Source: Harriotta raleighana
Taxonomy: Eukaryota
Direction: 5' to 3'
Assembly: GCA_050575255.1 (NCBI GenBank)
Contig: JBNZDD010013602.1
Location: forward strand, 96,333 to 160,332
Length of the DNA stretch: 64,000 nt
In this document: piece by piece, positions 36,301-62,974 of the stretch
Numbering within the stretch: position 1 is the stretch's first letter
Layout: each line of letters begins with the position of its first letter
Notes under the pieces: model-generated
What the model was told of the DNA's origin: nothing
What the model saw: only the letters and a program-made list of their open reading frames with translations
Databases searched by the model: none
Program-made: the position numbers and the translations under genes

Positions 36301-39300
36301 TTTGTTTCAACTCTCTGAGGCTTGGGGCAACAAGTTCGTGAATACACATTCTTACATTCAACACTTGAAATCCACCTTGATTGGTGTAATATGGCATTGA
36401 CAAAAAGTCATTTATGAAATCAAGTCATTGTGATTTTCTTGCTTAAACAAAAACTTTCCTTCGCATTCTTTCAGGTACAATTGAAGGCATTGTAACAGGT
36501 AATCATGTGTTGCTATTTAACATCAAAATTAAAGAATTTTACTTATGAGGAATGTATGGAAATTATGAAAGGTGACGAACATAGTTTGTTGTATTTTCTG
36601 CATCCTTACTCTGAGGACCAGACCTTTTTTCTAATGAATTTAAAAATCTGCATGGAGAAACAATTTTCCAACTAAGAAAATTTTTAAGGAACATGTGAAA
36701 CCTGAGCAATTTTAACATTTAGAGCATTTTGTGTGTAGAAACTCTGGGAACTTGATGGCTTTCTGTATTGAAAGGATTCATTCAATGTTATTAGTATGTT
36801 TCCTGATGTGACAATGTTAAAATAAAAAGTACAAATACTTCTGTGCTCAACTAGCTCTGCGACAAGTAATAATAATAATTGTCTTTAGAGTTCTTGCTGA
36901 GTCAGTTCTGAGGACTGAGCTGAGTACAGAAAAGTATTTTAGTCTCCACCCATCAAAAATGTGGAATAGATTTATTGTTGGATGCAGAAATCTATAGCTT
37001 GACATGGGTGGTATAAAATATGAAGCTTACATTCCTTCAAACATTAAAATTATTATCTTTGAGTAGAGCAGAATGCTGAACATTTTTCCACATATGAAAT
37101 AGTACCTGGATTTATTCTGTTAATATTGATAAAATTACTAATGTACAGATTTATTTCAGATTGGGAACCTTACAAAGAATCTGAAGCTATGAGTCAATCA
37201 GGTATCTGAATTCCTTGTTTTATAAAATCATTAATTAAAGTTGCTGATAGGTTAAAACAATTCACTTTACAGTATATTCTGTGAAGTGCTTTGAGACGTC
37301 TAGAAGACATGAAAAGCACTATATCGAATGGAAGGATTATAATTATTATATAACTTTTCATCTTGCCCAGGAATTGAACCCAATTCCTCTCATTTGTGAG
37401 CATTGTTCTAACCACTAAACTATGGGGCTTTGATTGAATTGCAAGAAAGTAATATGCAGTATTCACAAGGATAGGGAAAACTAAAAGGTTGATTTTCCTT
37501 TTTTTGAATGATTACAATCTCCTGCAATAAGAAGCTTTTTCCATTTTTCAAAGAAAAGTTGAAAAGTTTTGTTACTTTCTGTGAATATTGTTGGGTACTA
37601 AAAGTAGTAACACCACTAAGTGAATCCAGTGTTGTTGTACATCAGTTTAAAATGAGAAGGAGCAGGTTCCACTGATTCGTATTATTCTACTTTATTAAGA
37701 TGGACAGGAGAGAAGGCCATTCAGGGAATTTGAGAAATACAAAAGAATTTCTTGTGAGCTTTGTCAAGACGAGGTAAGTGCATAAGCAGCAGATTCTTTC
37801 ACCGTTTCCAGTTAACAGTGAGTTGTTGTGACATATCTCTCCGTGTTCCCTTCAAGGACTCATTGGAATGGATTGTGGTGGAACCCAATGTTCTTTCAGA
37901 AGCTGAGATGGTTTTCAGGTAAAATATCAAAAATAACGCCGAATGATTAGAACTGGTGTGGAATTGCAATAATTGTTTAAACATTTCTCTTCAGGATTTC
38001 TCTTCCAGGTAAAGGCTATTACGAATGTGCTGTAACCAGACTGAGATGGGAAACCAAGAAAGAAACTACCATTAGCTACAGATATAGCTCCTGGGATGAT
38101 TTACATTTAAAAAAACATTTACGTAGAGACGTGAAATATTTAGGCCCATTGTTTAATTTCAACGCAAAGAATGAAGAGATTGCAGCTATTCACCTGCCTC
38201 ATTTTGTTTGTCTGAAAGGTAATTTGCTAACTTTCAAAATCCTTCTAGGTAGACTTATTTTGATTTGCAACATAAAAAATTGAAAATATCAGCCTTGCTT
38301 AGGGGTCAGATTGGCTCAGTTAGTAGCACTTTCATATCTGAGTCATAACTTTATCTGTACAAGCATCACTTTGGGACAGCTACATTATCTGAGACGTCAC
38401 CCTTTGGATGAGATGTTTCCTGTTCAGGAACATATTTAAGATCCATGGCCCTATTCGTAAAGAGTATGGAATTTCTTGTGATGTCCCAACAAGATCCTAG
38501 ATACTTCATGACTGTTTGTGCAACATTGCAGTGCAAAAGTCAGTTGCATGTTTGACTGCAAATATGCAGTCATTGCACCTTACAGTAAATTTTGTGAATC
38601 ATAGACTTTGATAACATGCTATGCTGATATATTAAATATATGGATTATTATTAACAACAAAATTGCATTTATAGAACTCCTTTCACATCGGGGGGACATC
38701 CCAAGGCACTGAAAAAACATTACTGAGAACCATCAGCCAACATTTAATAAATAGTAATAATCATCATCCTTAGCATCCCTCACATTGGATTGATCTGTCA
38801 AAGCGCTTCAGAGGATATACTGTAAAGTGCAGTGATTGTATGTTTCACAAACAACCATGAAGTGAGTGACCAATTTTATTTGGGGCTTTGTTGGTCAAGA
38901 CATCGGGAGAAACTCTTTTCAATTAGTGTCATGCGATCTTTAATGTCCATCTGAACAGGCAGACAGGACATTGGTTTAACATCTCATTTAATACAAAATG
39001 CAATAAACTGCAATCCCATTAATATTTATCACTCAAAAACACTTGTTGGAAAGAACTAAAGTACTTAAAATATCTTCTAACTTGTGACATTTTATGCAGA
39101 ATTATTGGCTTTATTCCCCAAGTGGGGAAAAAAATATATAGTACATATTCATAATTGCTCTACACTCAATGTGCCTTTCACATATGTGAAAACAAATTTA
39201 ATACTGATTTACAATTACCTCCAGTTTGTAGTGTTTTAACTTGCATTTAGTTCATTCACTTTATACTGTTGTAGTTTGTTAAAATATATAAACCTTTATA

Positions 39301-42136
39301 AACCTGCTAACATATATAAATAAATCTTTCACTGTGGTATGTAGAGTCAAAGTACGTACCATTCTTTGAGATTTTTAATTTGTAAAATACTGAATTTTCA
39401 CTAAAATTAATATTGATTCAAGACCCCCGCTCCAGTTTGTCCTGTTTTAACAAATACTTGCATTTAGTTCATTCACTTTGAATCGTTGAGGTTTGTTAAA
39501 ATATGTAAAGTTTATAAACCTGTTAACAAATATAAACCTTTAATTGTTGTATGCAGGGTCAGGGAATGTGCCATCCTTTGAGATTTTTCATTTAAAAAAT
39601 ACTGAATATTCACTAATGACTCCAACAACAATTGGTGCAACGCATGTGGAATTGAAAAACCCAAGCTTTTCTCTCATGGGTGTCATGTCTCACATATTGG
39701 CTTGGTTTCAAATTCACACTGTGGGAATCATTTATCAAACACTGACTGCTGAAGATGTAACGCTCCATGTCTACATTTTACCAAACGACTTATCAATACT
39801 GAAGGTATTTTCTTATTTTGAAAACCGTCTTCTACAGTCTCTGAACAACATGTACATTCAGCTGACAACACAGTCATGTCAACCTGGCTCAGTGGTCGAC
39901 TCAGATTTAGAGGGTTGTGGATTCAAGCATTAGAATCATATAGTCGCAGCTGACACTCCAATCTCGACAAAGTGATGCAGCACTATATCAAATGCAAGGA
40001 TTATTATTTGTTATATCTTGTTCTAGACAGTTCAGATGCAGGAAACAAATTCTGGAAAAATTGAAAAGCCTCCACAGATCAAGTCATTACATTACGGACA
40101 AGAGTATTCACTGCAAAGCCCTTCTAGTGTTGAAATTTCTCCATCAGTAAGTACTATCATATCATACTTTGAGGAACTAATTTCTCCATTGTTTCCCGAA
40201 CCAGTTCCCCCACAAATCATTGTCCTCTGTGTGTTGCAGGCTGTAACTCTGCATTACCTGAGCTGTAAGCAACACCAACAGTACTATGAAGTATACTGTG
40301 AAGATCAGAATACCAACATTGAGTTACAGCTGACTAAGTTAGACAGGACGAATGCTTTGTGGACAGTTAAGTTGAGAAAAAGTAAGTATTAGAGAAGTGA
40401 TCACTGTAGAAACATTAGGAACATATAATTAGTGCTAAAATCCCAAATCAGAAGCCCCAATTATAGTTGACTCCCAGAGCTTGCTTCTGATTATCATCAT
40501 CATCAAAGAGATCTACAAAATCATTAAAGAAATTTGCATGATTGGCTGTGAAGTCCATCAGAAGCTCTAAACTTCCTCCAACCTCATCCAGGTCCACATA
40601 CTGGCATGTTCTATCAGGGAACATCTCATCCACTACCATTGCTCAATTCAAACGGCTTTCCCTCAGAGATCAGAGAACTTTTAAGTAGTCACGAATAAAA
40701 GCCCAATACTTTGCTGCACAATACCCTTCTAGACATTTATTACTATGCCTTAACGACTGTACCTTTTTATTCCCCTTAGAGGATCTTCGCGTTTCAAACA
40801 AACAAGGTGGAACAAGAGGTAGATATTTTCCGCAACATACTTCAAATGAATTGTCGTTACAAGTTAAGAAATAATTAATTTGACTAGTATAAGAGAGAGA
40901 AAGACCAGAAGTAATAAATAATCAGAGAGAAAGAGAAAAATTGCTTGTGAGAGGGAGTCAAAAGGTTGAATTGAATGAAGAAAGCATCTCTTCCTTCCAG
41001 AACACTCCTACTATCCTCTATTGCAGCATTAAGATGATTTTTAAATCAGTTCAGCCTTTTCCTATCTGACATCCGGAGAACCTTTCCAGGCATTCACAGC
41101 CTCTGATCAATGAAAAACTTCTGTGGTAATGGTCGTGAAATTACTCTTTAGATCTAGACCCACCAACCACAATTGGCTTTATAAATAAAACAACTGTTTA
41201 TTAATATCAATATTCAAAAATAAATCTACTTTTCATCAAATTTATTTAAATTTTCTGGATCAAATCCCCAAACTTTTTTTGTGGATTAGAAACTATCTTT
41301 ATTGGTTCTCAAAATATATTTGCATTTTCAGCAAAAGCCAAACCAAATATATTTCTCTCGTACAATACTTTAGTTACGGCCACACATCACTCATGTGTAA
41401 AGTAGGCAACATATTTGTAGTCATGATGAATGAATAGCCTTTTACTGAAGTTTTGTAATTTTTTCCTTTTCTTCAGATGTGCCTGACGGAAGCATAAATG
41501 GTAAGTCCAAATATATCACCAGATAAGCTTCTGATCCATCCATCCATCCATCCACCCACCACCCATCTAATTTTTTTAACATATCCATTCTAGCAGAGAT
41601 AACTAAATGGAAATGAGGAAGTGTCGCCACTTCCCCGAATCCCCCCCACCCTGCCCCCTGAACCAAGGACAATTCTAATATTCTAGCAATTAGCTATTTT
41701 AAATCATCAAATAGTGCCAAAGATTTGGAAATGTTATGACATCAAAACAAATAAAATACAAATGAAGAATGAAACTAACATAATAGAAATGCTTTATTTT
41801 GATTGCATGTGGCTACTTAAGGATGTGTTCTGAGTTACATGCAGAAACTGTCTCTAATACAGAACTATTTCTACAGATGTGGAGTTTGTGAAGCGGCACA
41901 GAACACGCATCATTGAGAGACTTGGAGTAATTAACCCTATCCTTAGATATTTGATCGAAGCAGCTGTGATTAACGAGGATGAACAGGAGAAAATTCTTTC
42001 CACATCAACAAGATCAGAAAAGAATCAGGCACTGATGCAAATAGTAATGAGCAAAGGAATACATGCCCAAAAGGAGCTTTACAGAGCAATGGAGAAAATT
42101 GATCCCTACCTTGTAGAGGATCTCAAGAATTTCTAG
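33366..42136 (+). CDS. Gene C: UBL-FIIND-CARD protein (~513 aa)
   Basis: Exons 33366-33648 (UBL: [49 protein letters not shown]), 36475-36498, 37160-37201, 37700-37773, 37857-37918, 37995-38218, 39557-39804 ([14 protein letters not shown]), 40027-40146, 40240-40381, 40780-40818, 41477-41500 and 41877-42136 (CARD). Total 1542 nt, in frame. Confidence 0.82.
34400..34800 (+). pseudogene. Truncated intronic copy of a UBL cassette (homologous to the first UBL of gene D)
   Basis: [53 protein letters not shown] matches 45822-46080. The upstream UTR-like block matches 33030 and 45500. No ATG exon start or donor was found. Confidence 0.65.
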
Positions 42137-43639: not shown

Positions 43640-45686
43640 GAGACACAGGGACAAAAATTTGCAGAACAGGAATAACTGATAATAACAACACAACTATATA
43701 GCGCATCTCACGCAGGGTAGTGTCCCAGAGCACTTTGGCCTTGATTTCAAGAGCGACGGGCAATGTCAACATTGAGGTGGTAGGTGGGGAAGTATATATG
43801 GAAGTTGGAGAGGAGAGTTGAGAAATCTGAGGATATGGGGCAGGAAACTTTACAAAGTTAAAGTCACCCAAAAAGAAGGGATGCTCAGTACTGAAAGAGA
43901 GAGATTAGGTGAGAGGAGATGTCAGTGAGGTAAGAGCTGTGGGGAGAGTGGCGTCTAGAGGTGATGTCAATCCAGGGTCTGGCATTGGAGAACTATGAGG
44001 ATGATCTGAGCAATCATTAGACAAGCTATGGTTCTTCAGTCTTGAAAAAAGGTGATGCAGAAGCAAACTGATAGACGAATAAAATATTAACTGAGTGATT
44101 GTTGGAAAAAATAAACCCAGGACAATAATTTAGGAGGCACTAAAGACAGAACAGGAAAAAATGGGTTTAGTTATAAAAGGCTTTTCCTGTTTGACTACAT
44201 TGGTGGGATGGGGTTTCCCTTTCTAACCCCCCTCTCGGCTCTCATTATCAGCTCAGGCATCAAGCCGGGGCTGTCAAGCACCCTGCATCGACATCCTAAC
44301 GTGAATGGGAGTAGTTATTTGCAATTCTAATAAAATTTAAATTTTCAACTTTAACATAAATTTTTGTTATCTTGTAGCTGCAAATCAATGATACAATTTG
44401 GGGCTGCTCAAACTGGGTTTGAATGTGTTTAAGGGGTTAAGTTCAGTAGAAAAGAGGGAGGAACAATGCTAATGACACAAGAGCATTAGAACCAGGAAAT
44501 GCACATTCCAAGGAGTGNNNNNNNNNNNNNNNNNNNNNNNNNNNNNNNNNNNNNNNNNNNNNNNNNNNNNNNNNNNNNNNNNNNNNNNNNNNNNNNNNNN
44601 NNNNNNNNNNNNNNNNNNNNNNNNNNNNNNNNNNNNNNNNNNNNNNNNNNNNNNNNNNNNNNNNNNNNNNNNNNNNNNNNNNNNNNNNNNNNNNNNNNNN
44701 NNNNNNNNNNNNNNNNNNNNNNNNNNNNNNNNNNNNNNNNNNNNNNNNNNNNNNNNNNNNNNNNNNNNNNNNNNNNNNNNNNNNNNNNNNNNNNNNNNNN
44801 NNNNNNNNGAGACACAGGGACAAAAATTTGCAGAACAGGAATAACTGATAATAACAACACAACTATATAGCGCATCTCACGCAGGGTAGTGTCCCAGAGC
44901 ACTTTGGCCTTGATTTCAAGAGCGACGGGCAATGTCAACATTGAGGTGGTAGGTGGGGAAGTATATATGGAAGTTGGAGAGGAGAGTTGAGAAATCTGAG
45001 GATATGGGGCAGGAAACTTTACAAAGTTAAAGTCACCCAAAAAGAAGGGATGCTCAGTACTGAAAGAGAGAGATTAGGTGAGAGGAGATGTCAGTGAGGT
45101 AAGAGCTGTGGGGAGAGTGGCGTCTAGAGGTGATGTCAATCCAGGGTCTGGCATTGGAGAACTATGAGGATGATCTGAGCAATCATTAGACAAGCTATGG
45201 TTCTTCAGTCTTGAAAAAAGGTGATGCAGAAGCAAACTGATAGACGAATAAAATATTAACTGAGTGATTGTTGGAAAAAATAAACCCAGGACAATAATTT
45301 AGGAGGCACTAAAGACAGAACAGGAAAAAATGGGTTTAGTTATAAAAGGCTTTTCCTGTTTGACTACATTGGTGGGATGGGGTTTCCCTTTCTAACCCCC
45401 CTCTCGGCTCTCATTATCAGCTCAGGCATCAAGCCGGGGCTGTCAAGCACCCTGCATCGACATCCTAACGTGAATGGGAGTAGTTATTTGCAATTCTAAT
45501 AAAATTTAAATTTTCAACTTTAACATAAATTTTTGTTATCTTGTAGCTGCAAATCAATGATACAATTTGGGGCTGCTCAAACTGGGTTTGAATGTGTTTA
45601 AGGGGTTAAGTTCAGTAGAAAAGAGGGAGGAACAATGCTAATGACACAAGAGCATTAGAACCAGGAAATGCACATTCCAAGGAGTG
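43640..45686. other. Apparently identical ~880-bp duplication on either side of an N gap (44518-44808); probable assembly artefact
   Basis: 43640-44517 is repeated at 44809-45686. Confidence 0.75.
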
Positions 45687-45821
45687 ACTGCCTTAAATGG
45701 AGTCCGACAGTGTCTCTCTGAATTACACTTTAATATTTATATTTTTAGCAATACCTGAGCAATTTCAAAGAACACAGACAATACCACATCAATTTCTAGA
45801 TTGAGTGCCGCAAGTCTGAGG

Positions 45822-48800
45822 ATGGCAGAAGCCCAGCAGCCAGAAATTTACATAACTCTTGAAGTATTCAGAAGTGAGTGCGGCCCACTGGGGAAAGAAA
45901 CCATTGTGCAGGCAAGGCTGTCGGACTCCGTCAAACATTTTAAAGCAAAAGTCTTTGAAGAGATCGGTATAGCTCCCGAGTTTCAGCTCCTGGTGTTTCG
46001 TGGCAAATATCTGAAGGATGAGAACCGCAGCCTCCAGGAGTGCGGGATCCAATCGGGATCCACCCTGTGTGTATTGCGTAATACGGATTCTTTCCAGATT
46101 TTAATTCGTCTAATGGATAACAGGATAATACCTATACAGGTGGAACCGACTGACATAGTGGCAATACTCAAAGAGGAACTGTATGATATAATGGGATGTC
46201 CTCCCGATTCAATTCGTTTGATATTTAAAAGCACACCAATGCAGGATGATTTACAGCTCTGTGCCCATCAGATATACCCCAACTGCTCAGTACTACTCAT
46301 ACTCAGATGTAAGTAAAATCTAATTCTGACCTAACATCATAGAATTATATGGCATGATAGGAAGTCATTAGGCCTTGAAAGGCCTAATGACTTCCTACCT
46401 GTTACCTGCTTCGGTGCAAATCTTGACCATCCAGCACCTTGGAGAGTCCTCTGGACATGAAAGGTATCCAAATGATTTTGTTGTTGTTGGAGTAAGTAGC
46501 TGGTGCTGAATAAGCCTGGTACATGGCATTGGTCTTGGACCTCGAACATCAAAGTGGCTGACATGTCAGACCCTGCCCTGTAAAGGTCCACCCACCACCC
46601 TGAAGGCTAATGTCCAACAAATAGAGGAAACTCTGATGCAGGTTCACATTTGAAGGTTGACTTTATTATTATTATTTTTATTATAATTATCAGAACCATG
46701 ATAGAAGTTACTGACAACAACACCTTGCACTTATATAGCACCCTCCATGCAGGATAGTATCTCAGAGTGCTTAACGGTGGCGGAACCTGGGGGTGGGAGA
46801 TGACCGTAAGCACAATCAAAAAAAAAATAGTTTTCAGGAGTGGCTAGAAAAAGGTAAGAATGGGGGCAAGGCGGAGAGATTGATGAAGAGTGTTTCATAG
46901 TTTTGGGGCACAGTACGACCCTCCAGTGATGGAGCGGAGGATAAGAGGGACAAGCAAGGGGACAATGCAAGTCAAGTGGAAATTGAATTATATTGCATGA
47001 TGCATGCAGACTGATGCATTTGTTCTCTGTACATTCTCCATGTATCTATTGTATTCTTAATATTCAAGCATTTGACTTGCGTTTATTCTAATCTCCTGCG
47101 TTTTGCTTTGCAGTGCGCGGTGGTGGTGGTGGAATTAAGTCAGGTAATGTGTGTATTACATTTATACTGGAAGCAATTCAGATTCCTAATTTGGCAACTA
47201 ATTCAAGCAAATCTTGTAATGGATCTTTCTGTGTGATACTTTTGCCTGTTGTTGGGATTTCTGATCCCGAGGATTCAAAATATGACCTGACCATCTAAAT
47301 TGGTGCAGTCAAATTTTATTAAACAAAGCAAGATTAACATACTGTATGTGGGTTAACGTATNACCTGGTGTTGGGATTTCTGATCCCGAGGATTCAAAAT
47401 ATGACCCGACCATCTAAATTGGTGCAGTCAAATTTTATTAAACGAAGCAAGATTAACATACTGTATGTGGGTTAACGTATTTAAAAAGTCCATACTACTG
47501 ATTGTAGANGCCTGTTGTTGGGATTTCTGATCCCGAGGATTCAAAATATGACCTGACCATCTAAATTGGTGCAGTCAAATTTTATTAAACAAAGCAAGAT
47601 TAACATACTGTATGTGGGTTAACGTATTTAAAAAGTCCATACTACTGATTGTAGAGAGTATATCTGGTCTCAGCAAGAACAGCAAACTCTGGTCTCAGCA
47701 ACCTCGGGCTGCACAAACCTCAGTTCCCCGAACTCTGGTCTTCGCAACCTCTGCTCAGCTCAGCTTGTCTCCTGATTTCTCTCCCTTATCTCAAAGGAAA
47801 ACTTTTCTTCTCACTTTCCTTCTAACTTTCCTTCTGTAACTGACCCTTCCCTGCCTGTAAAACAGAACTGGAATCATGCTACCAGTTCCAGTAGTTCTGG
47901 ACAACAGTGGCAGGCTGGAGATCTCGATTTCAATCCTCGGGATCGGAAATCCCAACACTTGGTCTTCACTCAAAATAAAAAAAGCTTCTTGCACAATTCA
48001 CATGATACTTTCATAGATGTAAAATAAAGTATCAACCTCCTTGGTTGCTCACTTCAACTCTTCAACTCATGGAGTCCATGCAGAAGATCATCATTTTAAA
48101 AAAATCTCTGAGTCTTGGGCAACAACTGCTGGAAGACATTACCTAGAGTCCAAGTTTGTGAACACATATTCTTATTTCCAACGCTTGGAATCCACATAGA
48201 CGTATATAGGCACACAGCTGCTGCTTAAACACTACAGTACCTCCAATTGGTGGAAGGATCGCTCAATGGAAAAGAACGTGTACCTGAGCTGCGGTCAGGA
48301 TGACATCATCTGCAGACATGGGGTAAATNGGGTCAGGATGACATCATCTGGTAAATTTCGAAATGTATGCGGATGAAACCCAACTCTAGCTTTCCGTTTC
48401 CACCAGGTCTACCAGCTTCCTGACTGTTTTCCTGTCTGACATTGAGTTCTGATCAGAAAAAAAACTTTCTCAAGGTGAATGTCCGCAAGACTGATGCCTT
48501 CCTGATTGGCTTGCGTCAGCGCCTCTGCTGGCACTGACAGCATCCAAGGCTCTCNCGGTCAGGATGACATCATCTGCAGACATGGGGTAAATTTTGAAAT
48601 GTATGCGGATGACACCCAACTCTAGCTTTCCGTTTCCACCAGGTCTACCAGCTTCCTGACTGCTTTCCTGTCTGACATTGAGTTCTGATCAGAAAAAAAC
48701 TTTCTCAAGGTGAATGTCCGCAAGACTGATGCCTTCCTGATTGGCTTGCGTCAGCGCCTCTGCTGGCACTGACAGCATCCAAGGCTCTCCACTTCTCTAA

Positions 48801-51800
48801 GCCAGTCAGGGAGGCGTCTTGTTCGACCCTGAACTGTCCTTCTACCTGCACATTCGAGCCATGATCAGTACTGCCTTGCACTACCTTCAAAACATCGCCA
48901 GACTCCGCCACTGCCTCACCCCACAGGCTGCCAAAACCCTTGTCCANTGCACATTCGAGCCATGATCAGTACTGCCTTGCACTACCTTCAAAACATCACC
49001 AGACTCCGCCACTGCCTCACCCCTCAGGCTGCCAAAACCCTTGTCCACACATTCGTCACATCAAGGCTCGACTGTGGAAACTCCCTCCTTGTCAGTCTTC
49101 CTGGTTGTTCCCTTTATAAGCTGCAGATCATCCAGAACTCTGCAGCTCGTGTCCTCACCCGCAACACGCTCGGTGACCAGATCACTTCCACGCTCGCCCA
49201 GCTCCATTGGCTCCCCATCCCCTAGAGGATCTAATTCAAGATCCTCATCCTCACCTTCAGGCCATTCACGGCCTTGATGACCCACCTACCTCTCCGACTT
49301 GCTGTCCCTCTATCAACCCCCACCCCACCACCATTTAGCGGGCTTGGCCTGCTCTATGTCCCCCGCCAGATCCGCCCTACCATCGGCACACGGGCTTTCA
49401 GCCTCTCTGCCCCCATCCTCTGGAACTCCATGCCACCATCCCTTCGCCTTTCTCCCTCCCTCGCCTCCTTCATGGCCGGTCTTGAGACCCTCCTCTTTGA
49501 GAGTGCCTTCTGCTGCACTCCAACTCTCTCCCTCCCCTCCTAACTCTCTCCAGCTCTTCCCCCCTACCCTGCCCCTCTCCCTTGCTCAGGTCCCTTGACT
49601 TGACTATTCAGCATTTTGGGACTTCCTCCTGATGTGAAAGGTGCTCTATAAATATAATTTTGTTGTTGTTGTTGAGTGCTCTAACCACTGAGCTACAGGA
49701 CTCCACAATATGTAAAAGAGTCAATTCTGGAATAAGCTCGTTGTAATTTTCTTGCTAACAAAAAACTTTATTTTGTATTCTTTCAGGTACTATCGGAAGC
49801 ATTGTAACAGGTAATCAGAATTTGCTATTTAACACTAAAAATGAAAGAATTTTAGTCAGGAGGAGGTTATGGAAATTATGAAAAGTGACAAACACTCTAC
49901 TCTTGTGTACCAATACATTGCAAATGTAGTTTTTGTATGTTTCACTCTTCATTCTGTCCCGCTTAACACCTTTCAAACGTGTGGATTACATTTTATTTTT
50001 TACTAAATAATGAGAATAAATAATCGCTTTGCGTCAGTGCCAAAATACTTGGGAAATGTATGTTTGGTGAAAGAGGAAGAGTCAGGGGAGGAATCTTATT
50101 TTTCCCAATATGCTGTTGTAAAAGAGTCAATTAGCAGATCATTGTGATTTTCTTGCTTAAACAAAAAACTTTATTTTGCATTCTTCAGATCCAATTGGAG
50201 GCATTGTAACAGATAATCAGGAATTGCTATTTGACACTAAATATGAGTTTTAGACATGAAGAAATTATGGAAATTATGAAGTGACAAAATTGTTGTATTT
50301 TACATTTCTGTATCCTTACTTTGACGACCAGACCTTTATGAATTAAGAAATCTGTATGAAAAAACAGGTTTCAACTAAGTATATTTTCAAGTAATGTGAA
50401 GCCTGAGCAATTTTAACATTCAAAGTATTTTGTGTGTAGAAACTCTGCGAACTTGATAGCTTTTGGTACTGATACATTAATATGGTATTAGTTTAGTCTG
50501 CCATGTTGTTTCTTATTTGACAATATTAAAATAAAGCACAAATGCTTCTGAGCTCAACTCACCCTGTGACATATATCTATAATTTATTTCAGATTGGAAA
50601 CCTTATAAAGAATGTAAAGCTGTGAGTCAATCAGGTAAATTAATTCCTTGTTTTGTAGATTGTTAAGTGAAGCTGCTGATATATACTGTACTGTATAATA
50701 TATATTTTTTAAATTCTTACATTTGGGACACCATATAAATTCCACACAACTGAAAAATATACATCAGGTGAAGCAGTTTTCAATCAATTTGTATTCTATT
50801 CCTATTCCACTGTGTATTCAGTGTGGTGCACTCAGTGTAGTATTGCGTACAGTACACCATCTTTGAATGTGCATTTGGATCTCTATGTCAAACTGCTTTC
50901 GGGTTGTGATTTTTTTCCTTTGATGAAGTTTGCACTTATCATGGTACGAAATGTTATTCTCACTTTCTTGTCTTTTAGCGCCTTTTCCCAGCAGCTTGGG
51001 ATGTCCTCCTGACGTTAAAGGCGCTATACAAGTGTATTTTTGTTTGTTTGTTGTTTTTTTTGTGGTTGGCTGACTGTTTGGATTCTACTCCAATAATAGC
51101 CTGAACATAGCTGTTCTAAAGCAAACACTGGTTAGTAATTTTTCTGATAAGGTTAAACGGAAAAGAGATGTGCCACCCTAATGGGATATTCTTCTGCCTT
51201 GCTACAATCCTATCATTGTTAGCTGAGATGTCAACACAAGTCTGGCAATAACTAAATTAAGTCAACTCCTCCTATCATAACTGCTCCTTTCAATCCTTGG
51301 CTTTTCTCCCTGTCTATTTCTTATCTTGCTTCATAAATCTTCACTCCGTTCCAATACAGAAATCCTGCAGAGCTATTACTATCACTTCTGTGAGAACAAT
51401 AAATTTGTTACTTTCTGTGAACATTGTTGGGCACTAAACTTAGCAGCTACACAAGACAATAAAATATTGTACATCAGTTCAAAATGAGAAGCAGCAGGTT
51501 CCACGATTCATATTATTCTACTTTCTTAAGATGGACAGGTGAGAAGGCCATTCAGCGAATTTGAGAAATACAAAAGAATTTCTTGTGAGCTTTGTGAGGA
51601 AGAGGTGAGTAAATGCATAAAGCACAGCAGTCTTTCACTATTTCTAGTTAACAGAGGAGAGGTGTTGTTAATGTCTTTCCGTGTTCCCTTCAAGGACTCA
51701 TCAGAATGGATTGTGGTGGAACCCAATGTTCTTTCAGAAGCTGAGATGGTTTTCAGGTAAAACAACAAAAATAACGCCGAATGATTAGAATTTGTGTGGA

Positions 51801-54800
51801 ATTGCAACAATTTTTAAACATTTCTCTTTAGGATTTCTCTTCCAGGTAAAGGCTATTATGAATGTGCTGTAACCAGACTAAGATGGGAAACCAAGAAAGA
51901 AACTACCATTAGCTACAGATATAGCTCCTGGGATGATATATATTTGCCGGGAAACTTTAAATATGTAGGCCCATTGTTCCACTTCAACGCAAAGGATGAA
52001 GAGATTGCAGCTATTCACCTGCCTCATTTTGTTTGTCTAAAAGGTAATTTGATAATTTTCAAAATCCTTCTAGATACACTTATTTTTATTTGCAACATAA
52101 TAAATACAAAAATATCAGCCGATCAGTTAGTAGCTCTCTCACTTCTATGTCATACATTTGTGGGTTGAAGCACCAAGTTGGGATTTTGAGCTCAGTTAGG
52201 CTGACACTCCAATACAGTGATGGAGGACAGATGCATTGCCTCAGATGCCACCCTTCGGTTGAGATGGTATATCATGATCCCGTATTCCTATTCAGTAAAA
52301 TATTTAAGAACACATGGCCGTATCCGTAATTAGAATACAATTTGTTGTGATGTTTCAACAATATCCCCGATTTAAAAAATGGTAATTTGGTTCATGGATG
52401 TTTGTGGACTATTGCAGTATAAAGGTCGGTTATGTCTGTCTGCAAATATGCAGTCATTACACTTACAGTAAATTCTGGACTTGGGTGTAAAGAGTACAGT
52501 TTCCAAGTTTGCAGATGACACTAAGTTAGGGAGAATAGTAAATAGTGAGGAGGATAGTAACCATCTGCNTGAAATGATGATAACATGCTAAAGTGACATA
52601 TAAATTGTATAGATTATTACATTTAGAACATTAATGAATTTAATGAGGAAAGATCATTTAATTTGTTCATGGCACTCTGACAACCATCATCTGGTATTCA
52701 ATAAATACGTAGTAATACAGTAAAACCTCGATAATCCGACATTCCAAAAGACGGCAAGGCCCTAAAACCAGCAAGATTTAAAAATACTATACATACATCA
52801 TTATTTTTTTTCCAATGTCAGCAAATCAGCCCAAATTCGGAATAGCTACTTGCAGTTCACGCTGGCGCCACTCTGTCACCCAGCTCTGTGGTTGCCGCTT
52901 GGGCATAGTTTGGCTGCAGTGCTAGGTTAACATTTTATGTGGTCGATGGGGCAGGGCTTCCCCAGATATATCTAGGGTAGGTTGAAGCACTCTGAGACGC
53001 CATCCGGTGTGGAGGGCACTATATAAATTGAAGTTGTTGTTGTTGTTAAATACTAGCAAACTCCGAAATCCGGTAGGTGAGTGACCCCAACTGTGCCAGA
53101 TTATTGAAATTTTACTGTAATTATCATCATCAGCGTCCTCACATTGGGATTATGTCTGAAAGTACTTCACAGAATAATCTGTAAAGTGCAGTGATTGTAT
53201 GTTTCACAAACAACTATGAAATGAGTGATCAATTTTATTTGGAGGCTTTGTTGGCCAGGATATCGGGAGAAATTCTCATCCCTTTTCAAATAATGTCATG
53301 CGATCTTTAATGTACATCCTGACAGACCGGACCTTGGTTTAACGTCTCATTTATTAGAAGTTAAACATTAGAGGTGCAGTCTATTCCATGTGATTAAACT
53401 GCAGCCCCATTAATATTTATCACTCAAAGAACTAAAGTACATGTACAATATTTAGAAAACTCTTACTTGTCAGATATTTTATGCTGAATTACTAGCTTTA
53501 TTTCACAAGTGGAAGAAAATATTATACAGTACTGTACATATTTGTACATGTTCTACACTCATAATGTACCATTCACATTAAACAAGTTTAATATTGTTTC
53601 AAGACCCTCTCCCTAGTTTCCACTGTTTTAACAAATACTTGCATTTAGTTCATTCATTTTAAATTGTTATAGTTTTTTAAAATACATAAACCTTTATAAA
53701 CCTGTTAACAAATATAAACATTTAATTGTTGTTTGCAGGATTGATGAGTATGCCATCCTTTGAGATTTTTCATTTAAAAAATACTGAATATTCACTAATG
53801 ACTCCAACAACAATTGGTGCAACGCATGTAGAATTGAAAAACCCAAGCTTTTCTCTCATGGGTGTCATGTGGACCTGCGCATCGGCTTTTTTTCCAATTC
53901 ACACTGTGGGAATCATTTATCAAACACTGACTGCTGCAGATGTAACGCTCCATGTCTACATTTTACCAAATGACTTATCAATACTGAAGGTAATTTTCTT
54001 ATTTTAAAGCCAGTCTTCTATGACAATAATATGCATATTCAGACTCTGATTTAGTGGATTGAGGATCCAAGCCTCAACACTTGGAATCAAATGGTCGAAT
54101 CTTACATTCCAATCTCGACAACGTGATATGGCACTATATCAAATGCAAGGATTATTATTTGTTATATCTTGTTCTAGACAGTTCAGATGCAGGAAGCAAA
54201 TTCTGTAAAAATTGAAAAGCCTCCACAGATCAATTCATTGCATTATCGCCGATTTTATTCACTGCAAAGCCCTTCTGGTGTTGAAATTACTCCATCAGTA
54301 AGTACTACCATATCATACTTTGATACTAATTTCTCCATTGTTTCTTGAACCAATTCCCCCACAAATCATTGCCCTCTTTGTTTTCCAGGCTATAAGTCTG
54401 CATTACCTAAGCTATAAGCAACAACAACAGTACTATGAAGTGTATTGTGAAGATCAGATTACCAACATTGAGTTAAAACTGACTAAGATAAAAAAGACGG
54501 ATGCTTTGTGGACAGTTTTGTTGAGAAAAAGTAAGTATTAGATATTCGAACACTGTAGAAACATTACGAATTTATAATTAATGTTAAAACACTAAATCAG
54601 AAGCCGCAATTATAGTTGACTCCCAGAGTGAGCCACTGCTTGCTACTGATTGTCATCATCATCAAAGAGGTCTTCAAACTCATTAAAGAAATCTGCATCA
54701 TAGCTTTCTCATTGGCTCCAAAGTCAATTAGAAGCTTTAAACTTCCTCCAACCTCATCCAGGTCCACACACTGGCATGCGCTATCAGGGAACACCTCATT

Positions 54801-56323
54801 CACTGTCATTGCTCAATTCAAATGGCCTTCCCTCAGAGATCAGAGAACTTTTAAGAAGTCACGAATAAAAGCCACACCTTTCAATTTTCAAACTGCTGCA
54901 CAATACCCTGCTAGACATTTATTACTATGCCTTAACTACTGTGCCTTTTGATTCCACTTAGATGATCTTCGCAAGCAAGCTATAATAAGAGGTAGATATT
55001 TTTCACAACATACTTCAAATTAATTGTTGTTACAAGTTAGTAAATAATTATTCCGACTAGTGCAAAGATAAAGACCAGACGCAATAAATAGTCAAAGAGA
55101 AAGTGAGAAATTGCCTGTGAGAAGGAGTCAAAAGATTGAATTGGATGAAGAAGCCACTTCAGTTGATCTGATCTCTACCTTCCAGAACACTCCTACTATT
55201 CCCTATTGCAGCATTAAGCAGATTTTTAAATCAGTTCAGCATCTACCCTCTACCATCCGGAGAACTTTTCCAGTTATTCATAGTCTCTGATCAATAAAAA
55301 ACTTCTGTGGCAATGGTCGTGAAATTACTCTTTAGATCTAGACCCACCAACCACTAATTGGCTTTATAAATAAAGTAACTGTTTATTAGTATCAATATTC
55401 AACAATAAATCTAATTTTAATCAAATTTATTGTTTTTATGGATAAAATCCCCAAACTAAATTTTTTTGTGGATCAGAAACTATCTTTATTGGTTCTTAAA
55501 TATATTTGCATCTTCAGTAAAAGCCAAACCAAATTTATTTATCTTGTGCAATATTTTAGCTACATCACTCATGTGTAAAGTAGGCAACATATTTGTAGTC
55601 ATGATGAATGAATAGCCTTTTACTTAAATTCTGTAAATTTTCCCTTTTCTTCAGGTGTGCCTGAAGAAAGCATAGAGGGTAAGTCCAAATATATCACCAA
55701 ATAATCTTTTGAAGAATCTGTACATCAAACCATCTATCTCTCCACCTATCTAATATTTTACCACGTATGCATTCTAGCAGAGGTAACTTGATGGAGATGA
55801 GTGTCTCCACTTCCCCCAACACTCTTCCCCCTCCCCCCCTTAAACCGAGAGCAATTCGAATACCCCAGAAATTAGCTATTTTGAATCATCCAATTGTGAC
55901 AAAGATTCAGAAAGGTTATGACACCAAACAAATAAAATCAAATACAAATGAAGAATAAAACTAATATGATAGAAATGCTTTATTTTGACTGCATATGGCT
56001 AGTTCAGGATGTTCTGAGTTACATGCAGAAACTATCTCTAATACAAAACTATTTCTACAGCTGTGGAGTTTGTGAAGCGGCATAGGAGAAACATCATTGA
56101 GAGACTTGGAGTAATTGACCCTATCCTTAGACATTTGTTCCAAGTAAATGTGATCAACGAGGATGAACAGGAGAAAATTATTTCCACAACAACAAGATCA
56201 GAAAGGAATCAAGCACTGATGCAAATAGTAATGAGCAAAGGAACATGTGCCCAAAAGGAGCTTTACAGAGCAATGGAGAAAAATGATCCCTACTTTGTAC
56301 AGGATCTTAAAGAAAATCAGTAA
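45822..56323 (+). CDS. Gene D: di-UBL-FIIND-CARD protein (~576 aa)
   Basis: Exons 45822-46308 (two tandem UBLs, donor t|gtaagt), 49787-49810, 50593-50634, 51531-51604, 51695-51756, 51832-52043, 53739-53989 ([14 protein letters not shown]), 54178-54297, 54389-54530, 54962-54991, 55655-55678 and 56061-56323 (CARD). Total 1731 nt, in frame. Confidence 0.82.
48290..49672 (+). mobile_element. L2-clade LINE 3' fragment in intron 1 of gene D
   Basis: (M)YADDTQL; [15 protein letters not shown]...[13 protein letters not shown]...LHWLP; ends in a (ttg)n tail; internal n-gap duplications. Confidence 0.8.
52478..52566 (+). mobile_element. Short CR1 RT fragment
   Basis: tccaagtttgcagatgacactaagttaggg = [10 protein letters not shown]. 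Confidence 0.6.
52718..53117. mobile_element. Tc1/mariner (Tigger-like) MITE
   Basis: Imperfect TIRs cagtaaaacctcgataatccgac / gccagattattgaaattttactg, flanked by TA; absent from the paralogous gene C intron (~38757). Confidence 0.7.
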
Positions 56324-57111
56324 CAGGCATCAAATAAGTAGAGGTTTAATTGCTAAAAGAATGGGACAAATAAATATTCTTGCTACTGTTATTTCTGCAA
56401 CATTACGCAGTCAGAGCAAGGTGTTTCAAATAGGTTGGATTATATTAAAACTGCCTGGTTTTGTTTAGTTTCTCCAAACTTTATTGATTTTCTAGCTCAA
56501 ACACATTTCTGGGATGAGGTGTTTCTGGTCTGAATGTCTTGGTTTTTCTTCTAACACCAATCCTCCGTGTGGTTCTTTACCATGTGGGACTATGGTTGAT
56601 TCACTTCTAGATGCAAAGTGCATGTGGTCCATGAGGGTTTCCTTAAACCACATTGCTTCTCTCTGTTTGAGTTTCTTTGCTCCTTGTCTCTATCAAGCCT
56701 AATGTTCTGCCTGCTTTGCTGATGGCCTTTGAGTTTTGTAATAGTCACATTAATTAACTTTACACTTGCGATTCTGAGCTCCGCTTCAATATTTTCTTAT
56801 CATTTTATATATTGAAGGATTAGCCAGTATATGTTCTATATTATAAACAATGTATTAGCCAGTATCTAAGTGTTGCATCATCCATCCATCAGTCTCCAAC
56901 AAACACATGCCACTCTACCAGGGAGCCTTTTGTACTGTGTTCCAGATACTGTATCCTTGTTTTTTTTCTCAGGATATATCTTCACTCCAAGGAAAAAGAG
57001 CTCAGTGACTATTTTTCCAGTTTATTTGTTAAAACTTGTTTAAATGCAGTATACGTTTATATAATAATAATAATCGTTGCATTTGATGTAGCGCTTTTCA
57101 CATCTTATCGN

Positions 57112-60100
57112 CTTAGCGTCCTCACATTGGGATTATGTCTGAAAGTACTTCACAGAATAATCTGTAAAGTGCAGTGATTGTATGTTTCACAAACAACTAT
57201 GAAATGAGTGATCAATTTTATTTGGAGGCTTTGTTGGCCAGGATATCGGGAGAAATTCTCATCTCTTTTCAAATAATGTCATGCGATCTTTAATGTACAT
57301 CCTGACAGACCGGACCTTGGTTTAACGTCTCATTTATTAGAAGTTAAACATTAGAGGTGCAGTCTATTCCATGTGATTAAACTGCAGCCCCATTAATATT
57401 TATCACTCAAAGAACTAAAGTACATGTACAATATTTAGAAAACTCTTACTTGTCAGATATTTTATGCTGAATTACTAGCTTTATTTCACAAGTGGAAGAA
57501 AATATTATACAGTACTGTACATATTTGTACATGTTCTACACTCATAATGTACCATTCACATTAAACAAGTTTAATATTGTTTCAAGACCCTCTCTCTAGT
57601 TTCCACTGTTTTAACAAATACTTGCATTTAGTTCATTCATTTTAAATTGTTATAGTTTTTTAAAATACATAAACCTTTATAGACCTGTTAACAAATATAA
57701 ACATTTAATTGTTGTTTGCAGGATTGATGAGTATGCCATCCTTTAAGATTTTTCATTTAAAAAATACTGAATATTCACTAATGACTCCAACAACAATTGG
57801 TGCAACGCATGTAGAATTGAAAAACCCAATCTTTTCTCTCATGGGTGTCATATGGACCTACGCATCGGCTTTGTTTCCAATTCACACTGTGGGAATCATT
57901 TATCAAACACTGACTGCTGCAGATGTAACGCTCCATGTCTACATTTTACCAAATGACTTATCAATACTGAAGGTAATTTTCTTATTTTAAAGCCAGTCTT
58001 CTATGACAATAATATGCATATTCAGACTCTGATTTAGTGGATTGAGGATCCAAGCCTCAACACTTGGAATCAAATGGTCGAATCTTACATTCCAATCTCG
58101 ACAACGTGATATGGCACTATATCAAATGCAAGGATTATTATTTGTTATATCTTGTTCTAGACAGTTCAGATGCAGGAAGCAAATTCTGTAAAAATTGAAA
58201 AGCCTCCACAGATCAATTCATTGCATTATCGCCGATTTTATTCACTGCAAAGCCCCTCTGGTGTTGAAATTACTCCATCAGTAAGTACTACCATATCCTA
58301 CTTTGATACTAAATTCTCCATTGTTTCTTGAACCAATTCCCCCACAAATCATTGCCCTCTTTGTTTTCCAGGCTATAAGTCTGCATTACCTAAGCTGTAA
58401 GCAACAACAACAGTACTATGAAGTGTATTGTGAAGATCAGATTACCAACATTGAGTTAAAACTGACTAAGATAAAAAAGACGGATGCTTTGTGGACAGTT
58501 TTGTTGAGAAAAAGTAAGTATTAGATATTCGAACACTGTAGAAACATTACAAACTTATAATTAATGTTAAAACGCTAAATCAGAAGCCGCAATTATAGTT
58601 GACTCCCAGAGTGAGCCACTGCTTGCTATCGATTGTCATCATCATCAAAGAGGTCTTCAAACTCATTAAAGAAATCTGCAACATAGCTTTCTCATTGGCT
58701 CCAAAGTCAATTAGAAGCTTTAAACTTCCTCCAACCTCATCCAGGTCCACACACTGGCATGCGCTATCAGGGAACACCTCATTCACTGTCATTGCTCAAT
58801 TCAAATGGCCTTCCCTCAGAGATCAGAGAACTTTAAGAAGTCTCGAATAAAAGCCACACCTTTCAATTTTCAAACTGCTGCACAATACCGCTAGACATTT
58901 ATTACTATGCCTTAACTACTGTGTCTTTTGATTCCACTTAGATGATCTTCGCAAGCAAGTTATAATAAGAGGTAGATATTTTTCACAACATACTTCAAAT
59001 TAATTGTTGTTACAAGTTAGTAAATAATTATTCCGACTAGTGCAAAGATAAAGACCAGACGCAATAAATAGTCAAAGAGAAAGTGAGAAATTGCCTGTGA
59101 GGAGTCAAAAGATTGAATTGGATGAAGAAGCCACTTCAGTTGATCTGATCTCTACCTTCCAGAACACTCCTACTATTCCCTATTGCAGCATTAAGTAGAT
59201 TTTTAAATCAGTTCAGCATCTACCCTCTAGCATCCGGAGAACTTTTCCAGTTATTCATAGTCTCTGATCAATAAAAAACTTCTGTGGCAATGGTCGTGAA
59301 ATTACTCTTTAGATCTAGACCCACCAACCACTAATTGGCTTTATAAATAAAGTAACTGTTTATTAGTATCAATATTCAACAATAAATCAAATTTATTGTT
59401 TTTATGGATAAAATCCCCAAACCAAATTTTTTTGTGGATCAGAAACTATCTTTATTGGTTCTTAAATATATTTGCATCTTCAGTGAAAGCCAAACCAAAT
59501 TTATTTATCTTATGTATCTTTAGCTACATCACTCATGTGTAAAGTAGGCAACATATTTGTAGTCATGATGAATGAATAGCCTTTTACTTAAATTCTGTAA
59601 ATTTTCCCTTTTCTTCAGGTGTGCCTGAAGAAAGCATAGAGGGTAAGTCCAAATATATCACCAAATAATCTTTTGAAGAATCTGTACATCAAACCATCTA
59701 TCTCTCCACCTATCTAATATTTTACCACGTATGCATTCTAGCAGAGGTAACTTGATGGAGATGAGTGTCTCCACTTCCCCCAACACTCTTCCCCCTCCCC
59801 CCCTTAAACCGAGAGCAATTCGAATACCCCAGAAATTAGCTATTTTGAATCATCCAATTGTGACAAAGATTCAGAAAGGTTATGACACCAAACAAATAAA
59901 ATCAAATACAAATGAAGAATAAAACTAATATGATAGAAATGCTTTATTTTGACTGCATATGGCTAGTTCAGGATGTTCTGAGTTACATGCAGAAACTATC
60001 TCTAATACAAAACTATTTCTACAGCTGTGGAGTTTGTGAAGCGGCATAGGAGAAACATCATTGAGAGACTTGGAGTAATTGACCCTATCCTTAGACATTT

Positions 60101-61050
60101 GTTCCAAGTAAATGTGATCAACGAGGATGAACAGGAGAAAATTATTTCCACAACAACAAGATCAGAAAGGAATCAAGCACTGATGCAAATAGTAATGAGC
60201 AAAGGAACATGTGCCCAAAAGGAGCTTTACAGAGCAATGGAGAAAAATGATCCCTACTTTGTACAGGATCTTAAAGAAAATCAGTAACAGGCATCAAATA
60301 AGTAGAGGTTTAATTGCTAAAAGAATGGGACAAATAAATATTCTTGCTACTGTTATTTCTGCAACATTACGCAGTCAGAGCAAGGTGTTTCAAATAGGTT
60401 GGATTATATTAAAACTGCCTGGTTTTGTTTAGTTTCTCCAAACTTTATTGATTTTCTAGCTCAAACACATTTCTGGGATGAGGTGTTTCTGGTCTGAATG
60501 TCTTGGTTTTTCTTCTAACACCAATCCTCCGTGTGGTTCTTTACCATGTGGGACTATGGTTGATTCACTTCTAGATGCAAAGTGCATGTGGTCCATGAGG
60601 GTTTCCTTAAACCACATTGCTTCTCTCTGTTTGAGTTTCTTTGCTCCTTGTCTCTATCAAGCCTAATGTTCTGCCTGCTTTGCTGATGGCCTTTGAGTTT
60701 TGTAATAGTCACATTAATTAACTTTACACTTGCGATTCTGAGCTCCGCTTCAATATTTTCTTATCATTTTATATATTGAAGGATTAGCCAGTATATGTTC
60801 TATATTATAAACAATGTATTAGCCAGTATCTAAGTGTTGCATCATCCATCCATCAGTCTCCAACAAACACATGCCACTCTACCAGGGAGCCTTTTGTACT
60901 GTGTTCCAGATACTGTATCCTTGTTTTTTTTCTCAGGATATATCTTCACTCCAAGGAAAAAGAGCTCAGTGACTATTTTTCCAGTTTATTTGTTAAAACT
61001 TGTTTAAATGCAGTATACGTTTATATAATAATAATAATCGTTGCATTTGA
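57112..61050 (+). repeat. Near-identical second copy of the 3' half of gene D (alternate haplotype or very recent tandem duplicate)
   Basis: Starts right after an n at 57111 and matches ~53130-57110. Intact exons at 57722-57972, 58161-58280, 58372-58513, 58942-58971, 59619-59642 and 60025-60287. Confidence 0.85.
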
Positions 61051-61215
61051 TGTAGCGCTTTTCACATCTTATCGACGTGCCCAAAGCGCTTCACAGAATA
61101 TATTGAAAAAGTGAATCGACTGTATAGTTTTGGGGCGGAATGTACATTCATACATATGTGTGCATAAATATGTTTATTTTCTATTACTGTATTACTTCTC
61201 AGGAGATTAAGTGTA

Positions 61216-62324: not shown

Positions 62325-62530
62325 GGAAATTCCCGCCTTTAGTGCCCTGCGCCTGCGCTGTGAGGCGCCGCTGTGGTGCATGACGCGATCACGGGCGGGC
62401 TGGGGGAAGGAGGGGAGGGGGGAGGGGGTGGGGGTGTGGGCGCTAAGACCTGTGGGAAATGTCGTTTCTAACTCAGGCGCGGTTCTCCGCTTCAGTCAAG
62501 CGGGAGCGCACTACAACTCCCAGAAGTCTG
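62325..62530 (+). promoter_or_regulatory. CpG-island promoter of ACYP1 with kB-like, NRF1-like and ZNF143/THAP11-type motifs
   Basis: GGAAATTCCC (reverse GGGAATTTCC) at 62325-62334, TGCGCCTGCGC at ~62348 and ACTACAACTCCCAGAAG at 62510-62526. Confidence 0.6.
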
Positions 62531-62581
62531 TGCCGCAAAGGGCCTACAAGTTCCCCCCCCTCCCACCACCAAGTCCCCCGG

Positions 62582-62974
62582 ATGTGGCGGTTGCTGTGGC
62601 GCGGCGCGAGCGTCCCCCTCCAGGCTGTTGCTAGGGCGACCCGGCACTTCGCTTGGGCGCCAGCCATGTCGTCGTCCGCCGGCCCAAATGTCTTGGTGTC
62701 GTCGAATTACGAGGTGTTCGGGAGGGTCCAGGGGGTGTTTTTCCGCAAGCACACGGAGAAGGAAGCCAAGCGCCTGGGCCTGAGGGGCTGGGTGAAGAAC
62801 ACGCCGCGGGGCACGGTGCAGGGGCAGCTGCAGGGCTCCGAGGAAAATGTCCGCATCATGAAGGCCTGGCTCCGCAACACGGGCAGCCCCAGCTCCAAGA
62901 TAGAGAAGGTGCAGTTCAGCGACGAGAGGCGCATCCCACAACTCGAGCACTCGGACTTCCGAATCGTCAAATAA
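62582..62974 (+). CDS. ACYP1: Acylphosphatase, ACYP1-like, single coding exon; alternative ATG at 62666
   Basis: [16 protein letters not shown]...[20 protein letters not shown]...GSPSSKIEK...SDFRIVK; FFRKHT and the terminal IVK resemble ACYP1 rather than ACYP2. Confidence 0.9.

Follow-up and report, generated by a model that had tools for sequence, protein, structure and literature searches.

In the window analysed here, a 64,000-nucleotide stretch of the Harriotta raleighana genome (assembly GCA_050575255.1, contig JBNZDD010013602.1, positions 96,333 to 160,332 of the forward strand), the spliced product of a gene designated gene B very probably has the order UBL-UBL-LRLRGG-G-linker-FIIND-CARD, where UBL is a ubiquitin-like domain, and a UBL-RGG design with a skippable RGG exon very probably occurs in birds and turtles as well. 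The central feature is the micro-exon that supplies the RGG. It may be, with a likelihood that we put just short of even, that such proteins are CARD8-type inflammasome sensors with an N-terminal bait that mimics a ubiquitin precursor and are fired by a cut of the deubiquitinase (DUB) type.

Exon structure of gene B and the RGG micro-exon

The window contains a FIIND gene cluster consisting of gene 1, gene 2, gene 3, paralog A, and gene B. Thirteen canonical AG/GT exons of gene B (45822–56323) join to a frame of 586 amino acids without a stop codon and encode, in this order, UBL1, UBL2, a linker (46 residues up to a CxxC motif), FIIND, and CARD. The exons, all on the plus strand, are as follows:

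45749–46308, plus: first coding exon, UBL1 (residues ~9–89) and UBL2 (residues 90–162), ending in LILR + 1 nt
47114–47143, plus: phase 1-1 micro-exon of 30 nt that completes LRLRGG (G76 equivalent = residue 166), next residue Gly; in-frame skippable
49787–49810, plus: linker micro-exon of 24 nt; paralog A counterpart 36475–36498
50593–50634, plus: linker exon of 42 nt; paralog A counterpart 37160–37201
51531–51604, plus: linker exon with the CxxC motif (residue 213)
51695–51756, plus: start of FIIND (ZU5)
51832–52043, plus: FIIND ZU5 exon (Pfam FIIND, E-value = 1.3 × 10−22)
53739–53989, plus: end of ZU5, His322, SF-S autoproteolysis site (F348/S349), start of UPA
54178–54297, plus: UPA exon; the corresponding paralog stretch scores as UPA-FIIND
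54389–54530, plus: UPA exon
54962–54991, plus: UPA-CARD linker micro-exon
55655–55678, plus: UPA-CARD linker micro-exon
56061–56323, plus: CARD exon and stop codon (Pfam CARD, E-value = 6.4 × 10−17)

The first coding exon lies in an open frame (45759–46316), in which the ATG at 45822 is surrounded by a strong Kozak context; a stop codon in the same frame precedes it (45756–45758), and an acceptor ends at 45748. Two ubiquitin stretches were recognized in this exon by Pfam (E-value = 8 × 10−27), and the donor GTAAGT at 46309 (phase 1) stands directly after LILR, as had been described in the original prediction, a note made earlier from the letters of this DNA. The read-through product ending in LILRCK and a stop codon, which that note attributed to intron retention, likewise agrees with the letters, and the fusion of the di-UBL to FIIND-CARD is borne out both by the open spliced frame and by homologs in which UBL, FIIND, and CARD are found in one chain.

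The 30-nt exon 47114–47143 has a pyrimidine tract, a CAG acceptor, and the donor CAG-GTAATG. When it is spliced in, the split codon is Leu, the tail becomes LILR + LRGG-GGG, and the protein reads [15 protein letters not shown], so that LRLRGG is completed internally at residues 161–166 of 586. The earlier suggestion of a non-conjugatable tail ending at LILR is therefore not supported, since the missed micro-exon supplies the RGG. Because this exon is symmetric, the previously proposed junction 46308>49787 is also in frame and would give a form without GG; it passes over a canonical exon, however, and would correspond to an exon-skipped isoform resembling the short isoforms of birds. Two homologous copies of the micro-exon are present in paralog A, with 27–28 of 30 upstream and 11 of 12 downstream flanking bases kept versus 16–17 of 30 coding bases, and the genome search with the micro-exon gave no match beyond these two copies. 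The acceptor + Leu-Arg-Gly-Gly pattern, which was picked after the site had been seen, occurs once in the window against 0.07 expected and at least once anywhere in the window in 7 of 100 shuffles; the acceptor is one of 89 YAG sites in its 3.5-kb stretch.

Several duplications were noted around these exons. A defunct copy of the 49787 micro-exon, its donor mutated, is located at 50190–50212. An exact duplicate of 878 bp (43640–44517 = 44809–45686) flanks the assembly gap just upstream of gene B, and the promoter region is unreliable. A 4-kb repeat (57115–61074 versus 53132–57110, 98.8% identity, N at the junction) holds the last six exons of gene B; in the 57115–61074 copy, the first Ser of the SFS motif is replaced by Ile, and this copy is either a recent partial duplication or a second haplotype that was assembled.

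Relationships of the ubiquitin-like domains

Comparison of the di-UBL exon with solved structures gave 78 bits for linear di-ubiquitin, 38 bits for FAT10 (one domain only), and 37 bits for ISG15, and the OASL-type di-UBL on the same contig scored only 28 bits. The ISG15/FAT10 likeness proposed earlier thus holds for the tandem arrangement and, on these scores, fails for descent, the exon being closer to linear di-ubiquitin than to either protein. The spacing of the two domains follows linear di-ubiquitin, with a degenerate inner tail. UBL2 is identical to ubiquitin of the same genome at 27 of 76 positions, with R42 and I44 kept and K48 and K63 lost, and its best matches among 31 domains were ubiquitin (46 bits), a falcon sensor UBL (42 bits), and an ostrich sensor UBL (38 bits). 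The UBL tree was mostly unresolved. In a language-model search, ISG15 clusters ranked second and third (0.92), which fits the two-domain layout common to both.

An ISG15 or OASL origin of the exon was rejected on the scores. Membership in ISG15 was rejected on account of the internal position of the motif, the lack of a free protein of ~160 aa, and the greater closeness to ubiquitin, and membership in FAT10/UBD on account of the internal tail and a match extending over one domain only. The single-sequence fold of the di-UBL (pLDDT 36) was not used.

FIIND-CARD module

Pfam matches to FIIND, UPA-FIIND, and CARD were obtained on the window exons, and the joined frame of gene B contains a ZU5-UPA FIIND followed by a C-terminal CARD. 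The SF-S site and the His residue located 26 residues upstream (H322, equivalent to CARD8 H270; CARD8 S297) are kept, as established by an ungapped count-back. The model of a tortoise protein matched ubiquitin (TM 0.90) as well as the NLRP1/CARD8 FIIND structures, with low confidence in its UPA part. Apart from a modulating Glu, gene B has the FIIND-CARD features that can be read from sequence and, judged by its N-terminus, is not mammalian CARD8. Shortly before FIIND, the window genes (51531–51604), rays, turtles, and birds all retain a CxxC or CxC motif, possibly a metal or redox site.

Homologs in other vertebrates

A FIIND profile search yielded 531 representatives, the best 150 of which were listed and 74 of these scanned with Pfam; an N-terminal ubiquitin domain was found in 12 of the 74 proteins (turtles, birds, lungfish, rays, catshark, and one protein without a name). 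In a second search, whose query was built from UBL-bearing proteins, 196 matches were obtained, and ubiquitin together with FIIND was present in 62 of the 120 listed (hand count), chicken CARD8 included, while no songbird, crocodilian, amphibian, or mammal names were noticed among these 120.

The tail was compared in 45 turtle and bird genera from named entries, the form closest to LRLRGG being taken for each genus, so that the following counts are inflated. RGG was found in 35 genera, RLRGG in 25, and LRLRGG in 10. Positions 73–76 matched ubiquitin in 82–93% of cases versus a mean of 35% for positions 1–70, and three core hydrophobic positions of the UBL were conserved even more than this part of the tail; R42 and I44 were kept in 76% and 78%, respectively, K48 in 18%, and K63 in 0%. 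The residue after RGG was Gly in 29, Ser in 5, and Asp in 1 of the 35 genera.

In chicken, buzzard, and ostrich, the two members of each RefSeq isoform pair agree as far as R72 and then differ by a cassette of 16, 13, and 16 residues, respectively. The cassette begins with L/V-R-G-G at position 73 and is consistent with a split codon, and the short forms are the expected product of a phase-1 skip. The position and phase of the cassette equal those of the gene B intron in the position-73 codon; this intron is genomic in gene B and deduced from isoform proteins in the three bird species. Among 20 listed sequencing-run assemblies of two chicken clusters (contigs of 1.1–2.5 kb), LRLRGG was present in 14 and the UBL part absent in 6, and the long form is therefore transcribed in chicken. 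No skipped junction was found among these 20 assemblies, and the skipped form in chicken rests on gene models.

Variation of the tail region was also observed among birds. Gulls and the kittiwake have tandem repeats of this region (several SLRGG/SLQG units), and the quail repeats the RGG unit, giving repeated bait sites; in three accipitrid genera, RAG takes the place of RGG, which may alter the specificity. Among the matches, FIIND-CARD proteins also occurred with BIR, AIG1 GTPase, or PARP14-type RRM as the N-terminal domain, and FIIND-CARD appears to capture many decoy domains.

Proposed mechanism and alternative explanations

The gene structure has been read from the DNA, and from the cleavage onwards we infer each step of the following scheme. 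FIIND would self-cleave at SF-S, and the UPA-CARD piece would be held silent. The diverged UBL would be a poor substrate for host DUBs but would be cut after GG by broad-specificity LxGG enzymes, for example pathogen DUBs, OTU enzymes, and papain-like proteases that strip ubiquitin, ISG15, or OASL. The cut would expose Gly (or Ser), an N-degron class read by CRL2-ZYG11B/ZER1, the proteasome would destroy the linker-ZU5 piece, and the freed UPA-CARD would recruit caspase-1. Skipping of the RGG exon would produce an uncleavable isoform.

The scheme agrees with what has been reported for related sensors. FIIND sensors fire upon degradation of their N-terminal piece (PMC7483925), a Gly/N-degron exposed by cleavage activates NLRP1 and CARD8 (10.1101/2024.06.24.600508), and Gly/N-degrons produced by viral protease cuts are read by CRL2-ZYG11B/ZER1 (10.1101/2024.06.24.600508; PMC7458402), with Ser also being read by ZER1/ZYG11B (PMC9741652). 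In 34 of the 35 genera, the residue uncovered by cleavage behind RGG would be Gly or Ser, which matches this N-degron class, and the linker would be left for the proteasome. Divergent avian LRLRGG pro-forms are cut by viral OTU and papain-like (PLpro) enzymes (PMC8764230). Given this cleavage and the N-degron residue after RGG, a bait for deubiquitinase-type enzymes is the reading of the UBL that we favour, at somewhat less than even odds, and the viral OTU/PLpro-type enzymes named in the original prediction remain a supported choice for a test. Cleavage at RGG by some GG-directed enzyme is likely; for a pathogen enzyme as the trigger, the evidence reaches not quite to an even chance.

A number of observations weigh against this scheme. 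Without picking of the best form, tail identity in all 82 entries was 50–87%, and the RGG is not universal: in the forms seen, it is absent in paralog A, gene 1, three shark/ray genera, the lungfish, and 10 of the 45 sauropsid genera. Most homologs are automated gene models. The equivalent of CARD8 E279, a Glu that raises CARD8 autoprocessing (PMC3210808), is Met in paralog A, gene B, and gene 3 and Gln in chicken, with Glu at 212 of 307 scored sites. Gly or Ser after GG may be a simple Gly-rich linker. Host DUBs cut ubiquitin fusions rapidly, and a perfect LRLRGG may therefore be processed constitutively. In the FIIND tree (60 rows, quick method, midpoint root, no clade test, no named mammalian CARD8 included), the sauropsid UBL clade lies among other tetrapod FIINDs, and the chimaera, ray, and lungfish genes lie apart with weak support; since the chimaera is not joined with the sauropsid UBL clade, an independent origin is possible. 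The UBL was either ancestral and replaced in other paralogs or captured twice, and an ancestral UBL is favoured because the intron position is shared.

The main alternative to cleavage by a pathogen enzyme, which we regard as unlikely but the most serious of those considered, is that host DUBs remove the UBL constitutively and give every molecule a defined Gly/Ser N-terminus that sets its turnover. The sensor would then monitor proteostasis or DPP9, which restrains FIIND sensors (PMC7483925), or would guard DUB activity, so that blocked cleavage leads to degradation of the UBL fusion and firing. In its favour are the unaltered LRLRGG of gene B, found in 10 of the 45 genera too, the largely kept R42, I44, and R72–G76, and the small residue after GG, whereas the UBL body of gene B is only 27/76 identical to ubiquitin, and the loss of K48 and K63 weakens the ubiquitin-fusion-degradation route. 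Fast divergence, turnover of paralogs, and the skippable RGG exon likewise seem closer to host–pathogen conflict than to housekeeping.

It is rather improbable as a general explanation that the UBL stays uncleaved and acts as a decoy or proteasome handle, which would bait pathogen E3 or ubiquitin-modifying effectors or dock Rpn1/10/13, the N-terminal piece being degraded without a GG cut. NLRP1 serves as a decoy through which E3 ligases of bacteria and viruses are sensed (PMC13037943; 10.64898/2026.10.24.761588), and UBL-FIIND proteins without GG (gene 1, paralog A, rays, and lungfish) would still need a function, for which this reading may apply. However, it leaves unexplained why L73–G76 and the following Gly are kept in 35 of the 45 genera on an exon of their own.

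A di-UBL that stands alone or is a non-functional exon in this species, with 47114–47143 unused and LRLRGG a coincidence or relic, is very improbable: the read-through stop right after the donor, the decay of the same region in paralog A, the assembly gaps and exact duplicates flanking gene B, and the failure to find a close ortholog would fit it, but 13 canonical exons join without a stop, the splice flanks are conserved, the junction position matches the bird isoforms, and the acceptor + LRGG pattern has a low chance of occurring. Least probable of all is a released UBL-GG as the main product, co-delivered with the inflammasome module as a conjugatable modifier like ISG15 or avian OASL, whose di-UBL is conjugated through LRLRGG (PMC8764230), since, despite the intact tail and the OASL cluster on the same contig, positions 71–72 vary widely in birds, and no stand-alone form was found among the matches, where an intact FIIND invariably follows the UBL.

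FIIND cluster and neighbouring genes

The other members of the cluster are located as follows:

363–4710, plus: gene 1 (3′ end not included), one UBL without a GG tail + FIIND; clusters with UBL-FIIND proteins of ray, skate, and catshark
18567–21884, plus: gene 2, FIIND-CARD coding stretch (long micro-exon N-terminus not included)
22996–27670, minus: gene 3, FIIND-CARD; FIIND 74% identical to that of a Callorhinchus CARD8-like protein without UBL
33366–42136, plus: paralog A, one UBL (UBL2-like); FIIND-CARD 80% identical to that of gene B

The tail of paralog A is degenerate (QSG/QGG from the micro-exons 35230–35259 and 36045–36074), and a relic fragment of UBL1 is present in its first intron (~34576–34755). 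UBL1 seems to have been removed from paralog A through an in-frame deletion, and this loss, the relic, and the tandem micro-exon copies (33366–36074) seem to reflect rapid turnover of the bait. Between genes 1 and 2, a long series of small candidate exons was noted (~8000–18340). In ray proteins, a long stretch of low complexity connects UBL-ZU5 with a second ZU5, and genes 1 and 2 may for this reason be alternatively joined.

The closest named relatives of the cluster were proteins of Callorhinchus, catshark, skate, and rays, which by themselves point most probably to a cartilaginous fish from the chimaera group. No close ortholog of paralog A or gene B was found, the best outside match being 51%. 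When the di-UBL exon (178 candidates) and a FIIND exon (21 candidates) were compared with longer proteins in word-index searches, no match was obtained, which is weak evidence. At a second FIIND locus (G000:C13729, ~12.2 Mb), no UBL was evident in open-frame listings covering 20 kb around and upstream of the FIIND exon, a profile scan not having been made.

The neighbours of the locus include an Mpv17/PMP22-family gene, an OAS cluster, and a polyubiquitin gene. The FIIND cluster sits between the Mpv17/PMP22-family gene and a single-exon acylphosphatase frame (window 62447–62974; G000:C13602:91215–91346). The polyubiquitin gene is made up of six ubiquitin copies, one of them with D52E, and lies at 1.83 Mb of the same contig. 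PXMP2, OASL, and UBC presumably lie together on human 12q24 and on chicken chromosome 15 (~12.7 Mb), and the chicken CARD8 entries lie on 12.70-Mb records. There are thus hints, dependent on this assumed synteny, that the gene B cluster and chicken CARD8 occupy the same locus.

The OAS gene cluster (G000:C13602:42–18496) is located ~80–95 kb upstream of the window. At least one of its genes ends in a di-UBL exon with LRLRGG and a 5-residue extension, for which the best single-stretch matches were the chicken OASL UBL and ISG15; a similar OAS/di-UBL set is present on C13546. A free-looking di-UBL at G000:C13602:6200–6667 was initially read as ISG15 but is probably the final exon of an OASL gene. 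A partial UBL with LRLRGG directly before the stop codon, its upstream part being N, lies at G000:C13602:25489–25608 and is possibly ISG15 or another OASL end, and a single divergent UBL ending in GG-stop (G000:C6922:364–564, minus strand) is FUBI- or FAT10-like by eye.

Comparison with known systems and significance

Human CARD8 shares with gene B the linker-FIIND(ZU5-UPA)-CARD order, the SF-S site, and the catalytic His, and in both, activation by functional degradation would be expected after N-terminal cleavage. Its N-terminus, however, is disordered and has no folded domain (PMC7483925, PMC13037943), whereas UBL-FIIND-CARD proteins begin with one to three folded UBLs and the RGG tail. NLRP1 and mouse NLRP1B, as tripwire and integrated decoy, also have a FIIND-CARD alarm set off by pathogen proteases or E3 ligases, with a Gly/N-degron after the cut; gene B differs in the lack of NACHT, LRR, and PYD, in a whole captured ubiquitin-mimic domain, and in the predicted trigger, DUB-type cleavage. 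Bird CARD8 and turtle CARD8-like proteins (chicken XP_415289.4 and Gopherus XP_030438946.1) have the same UBL-RGG-G/S-linker-FIIND-CARD order with the RGG cassette from ubiquitin position 73, but one UBL instead of two, and the best turtle matches are ~37% identical over FIIND-CARD. A conserved myristoylation motif after the putative cut was considered and rejected by eye.

ISG15, avian OASL, and FAT10 have two tandem UBLs, like gene B, and the ISG15 and OASL pro-forms carry LRLRGG with an extension that can be cut by viral OTU/PLpro; in gene B, LRLRGG is followed by an inflammasome module of 420 residues, and an intron interrupts the tail. In the ubiquitin-precursor fusions UBA52, RPS27A, FAU/FUBI, and SDE2, a DUB cut after UBL-GG creates a new N-terminus, as in the scheme proposed for gene B, although these are housekeeping proteins cut by host enzymes. 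To our knowledge, none of them is fused to a death-fold sensor.

Proteins of this architecture from birds and turtles are already in the databases under automatic names, and the UBL is not discussed in the papers found. In the full-text literature, with most subscription papers outside its coverage, no description of a FIIND-CARD protein with a UBL was found. In the survey of bird inflammasomes (PMC11258412), no word starting with "ubiquitin" occurs in the main text and neither "ubiquitin" nor "Ubl" in the supplement; a word search of the CARD8 protease paper PMC10249858 gave no "bird" or "ubiquitin-like"; and the available part of the domain survey PMC8195603 mentions FIIND fusions, the UBL not being among them. 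Recent sensing work, in the parts available, covers E3 ligases only (PMC13037943; 10.64898/2026.10.24.761588), and in a 2026 paper the use of integrated decoys in vertebrates is called an open question, with one case of surface mimicry shown (PMC13037943).

The known FIIND sensors detect pathogen proteases and E3 ligases, and none for deubiquitinases was found in the literature searched. Deubiquitinases are a widespread class of viral and bacterial immune antagonists. In the UBL-FIIND-CARD sensor, a whole domain appears to have been captured, as in plant NLRs. It is possible, with a likelihood that we put somewhat below even, that jawed vertebrates have kept a DUB-detecting inflammasome since the split of cartilaginous and bony fish, in which an integrated ubiquitin-precursor decoy would be cut by a pathogen DUB, OTU, or papain-like enzyme, the resulting N-degron would lead to release of the CARD, and the spliced RGG exon would serve as an arming switch. 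In birds, ASC and most inflammasomes are missing, whereas CARD8 has been kept (PMC11258412); if the above is true, DUB detection would be the working principle of bird CARD8, which is among the few inflammasome sensors that birds retain. The design thus offers a testable answer to the question of what bird CARD8 senses, with a natural isoform, predicted to be uncleavable, as the control in chicken cells.

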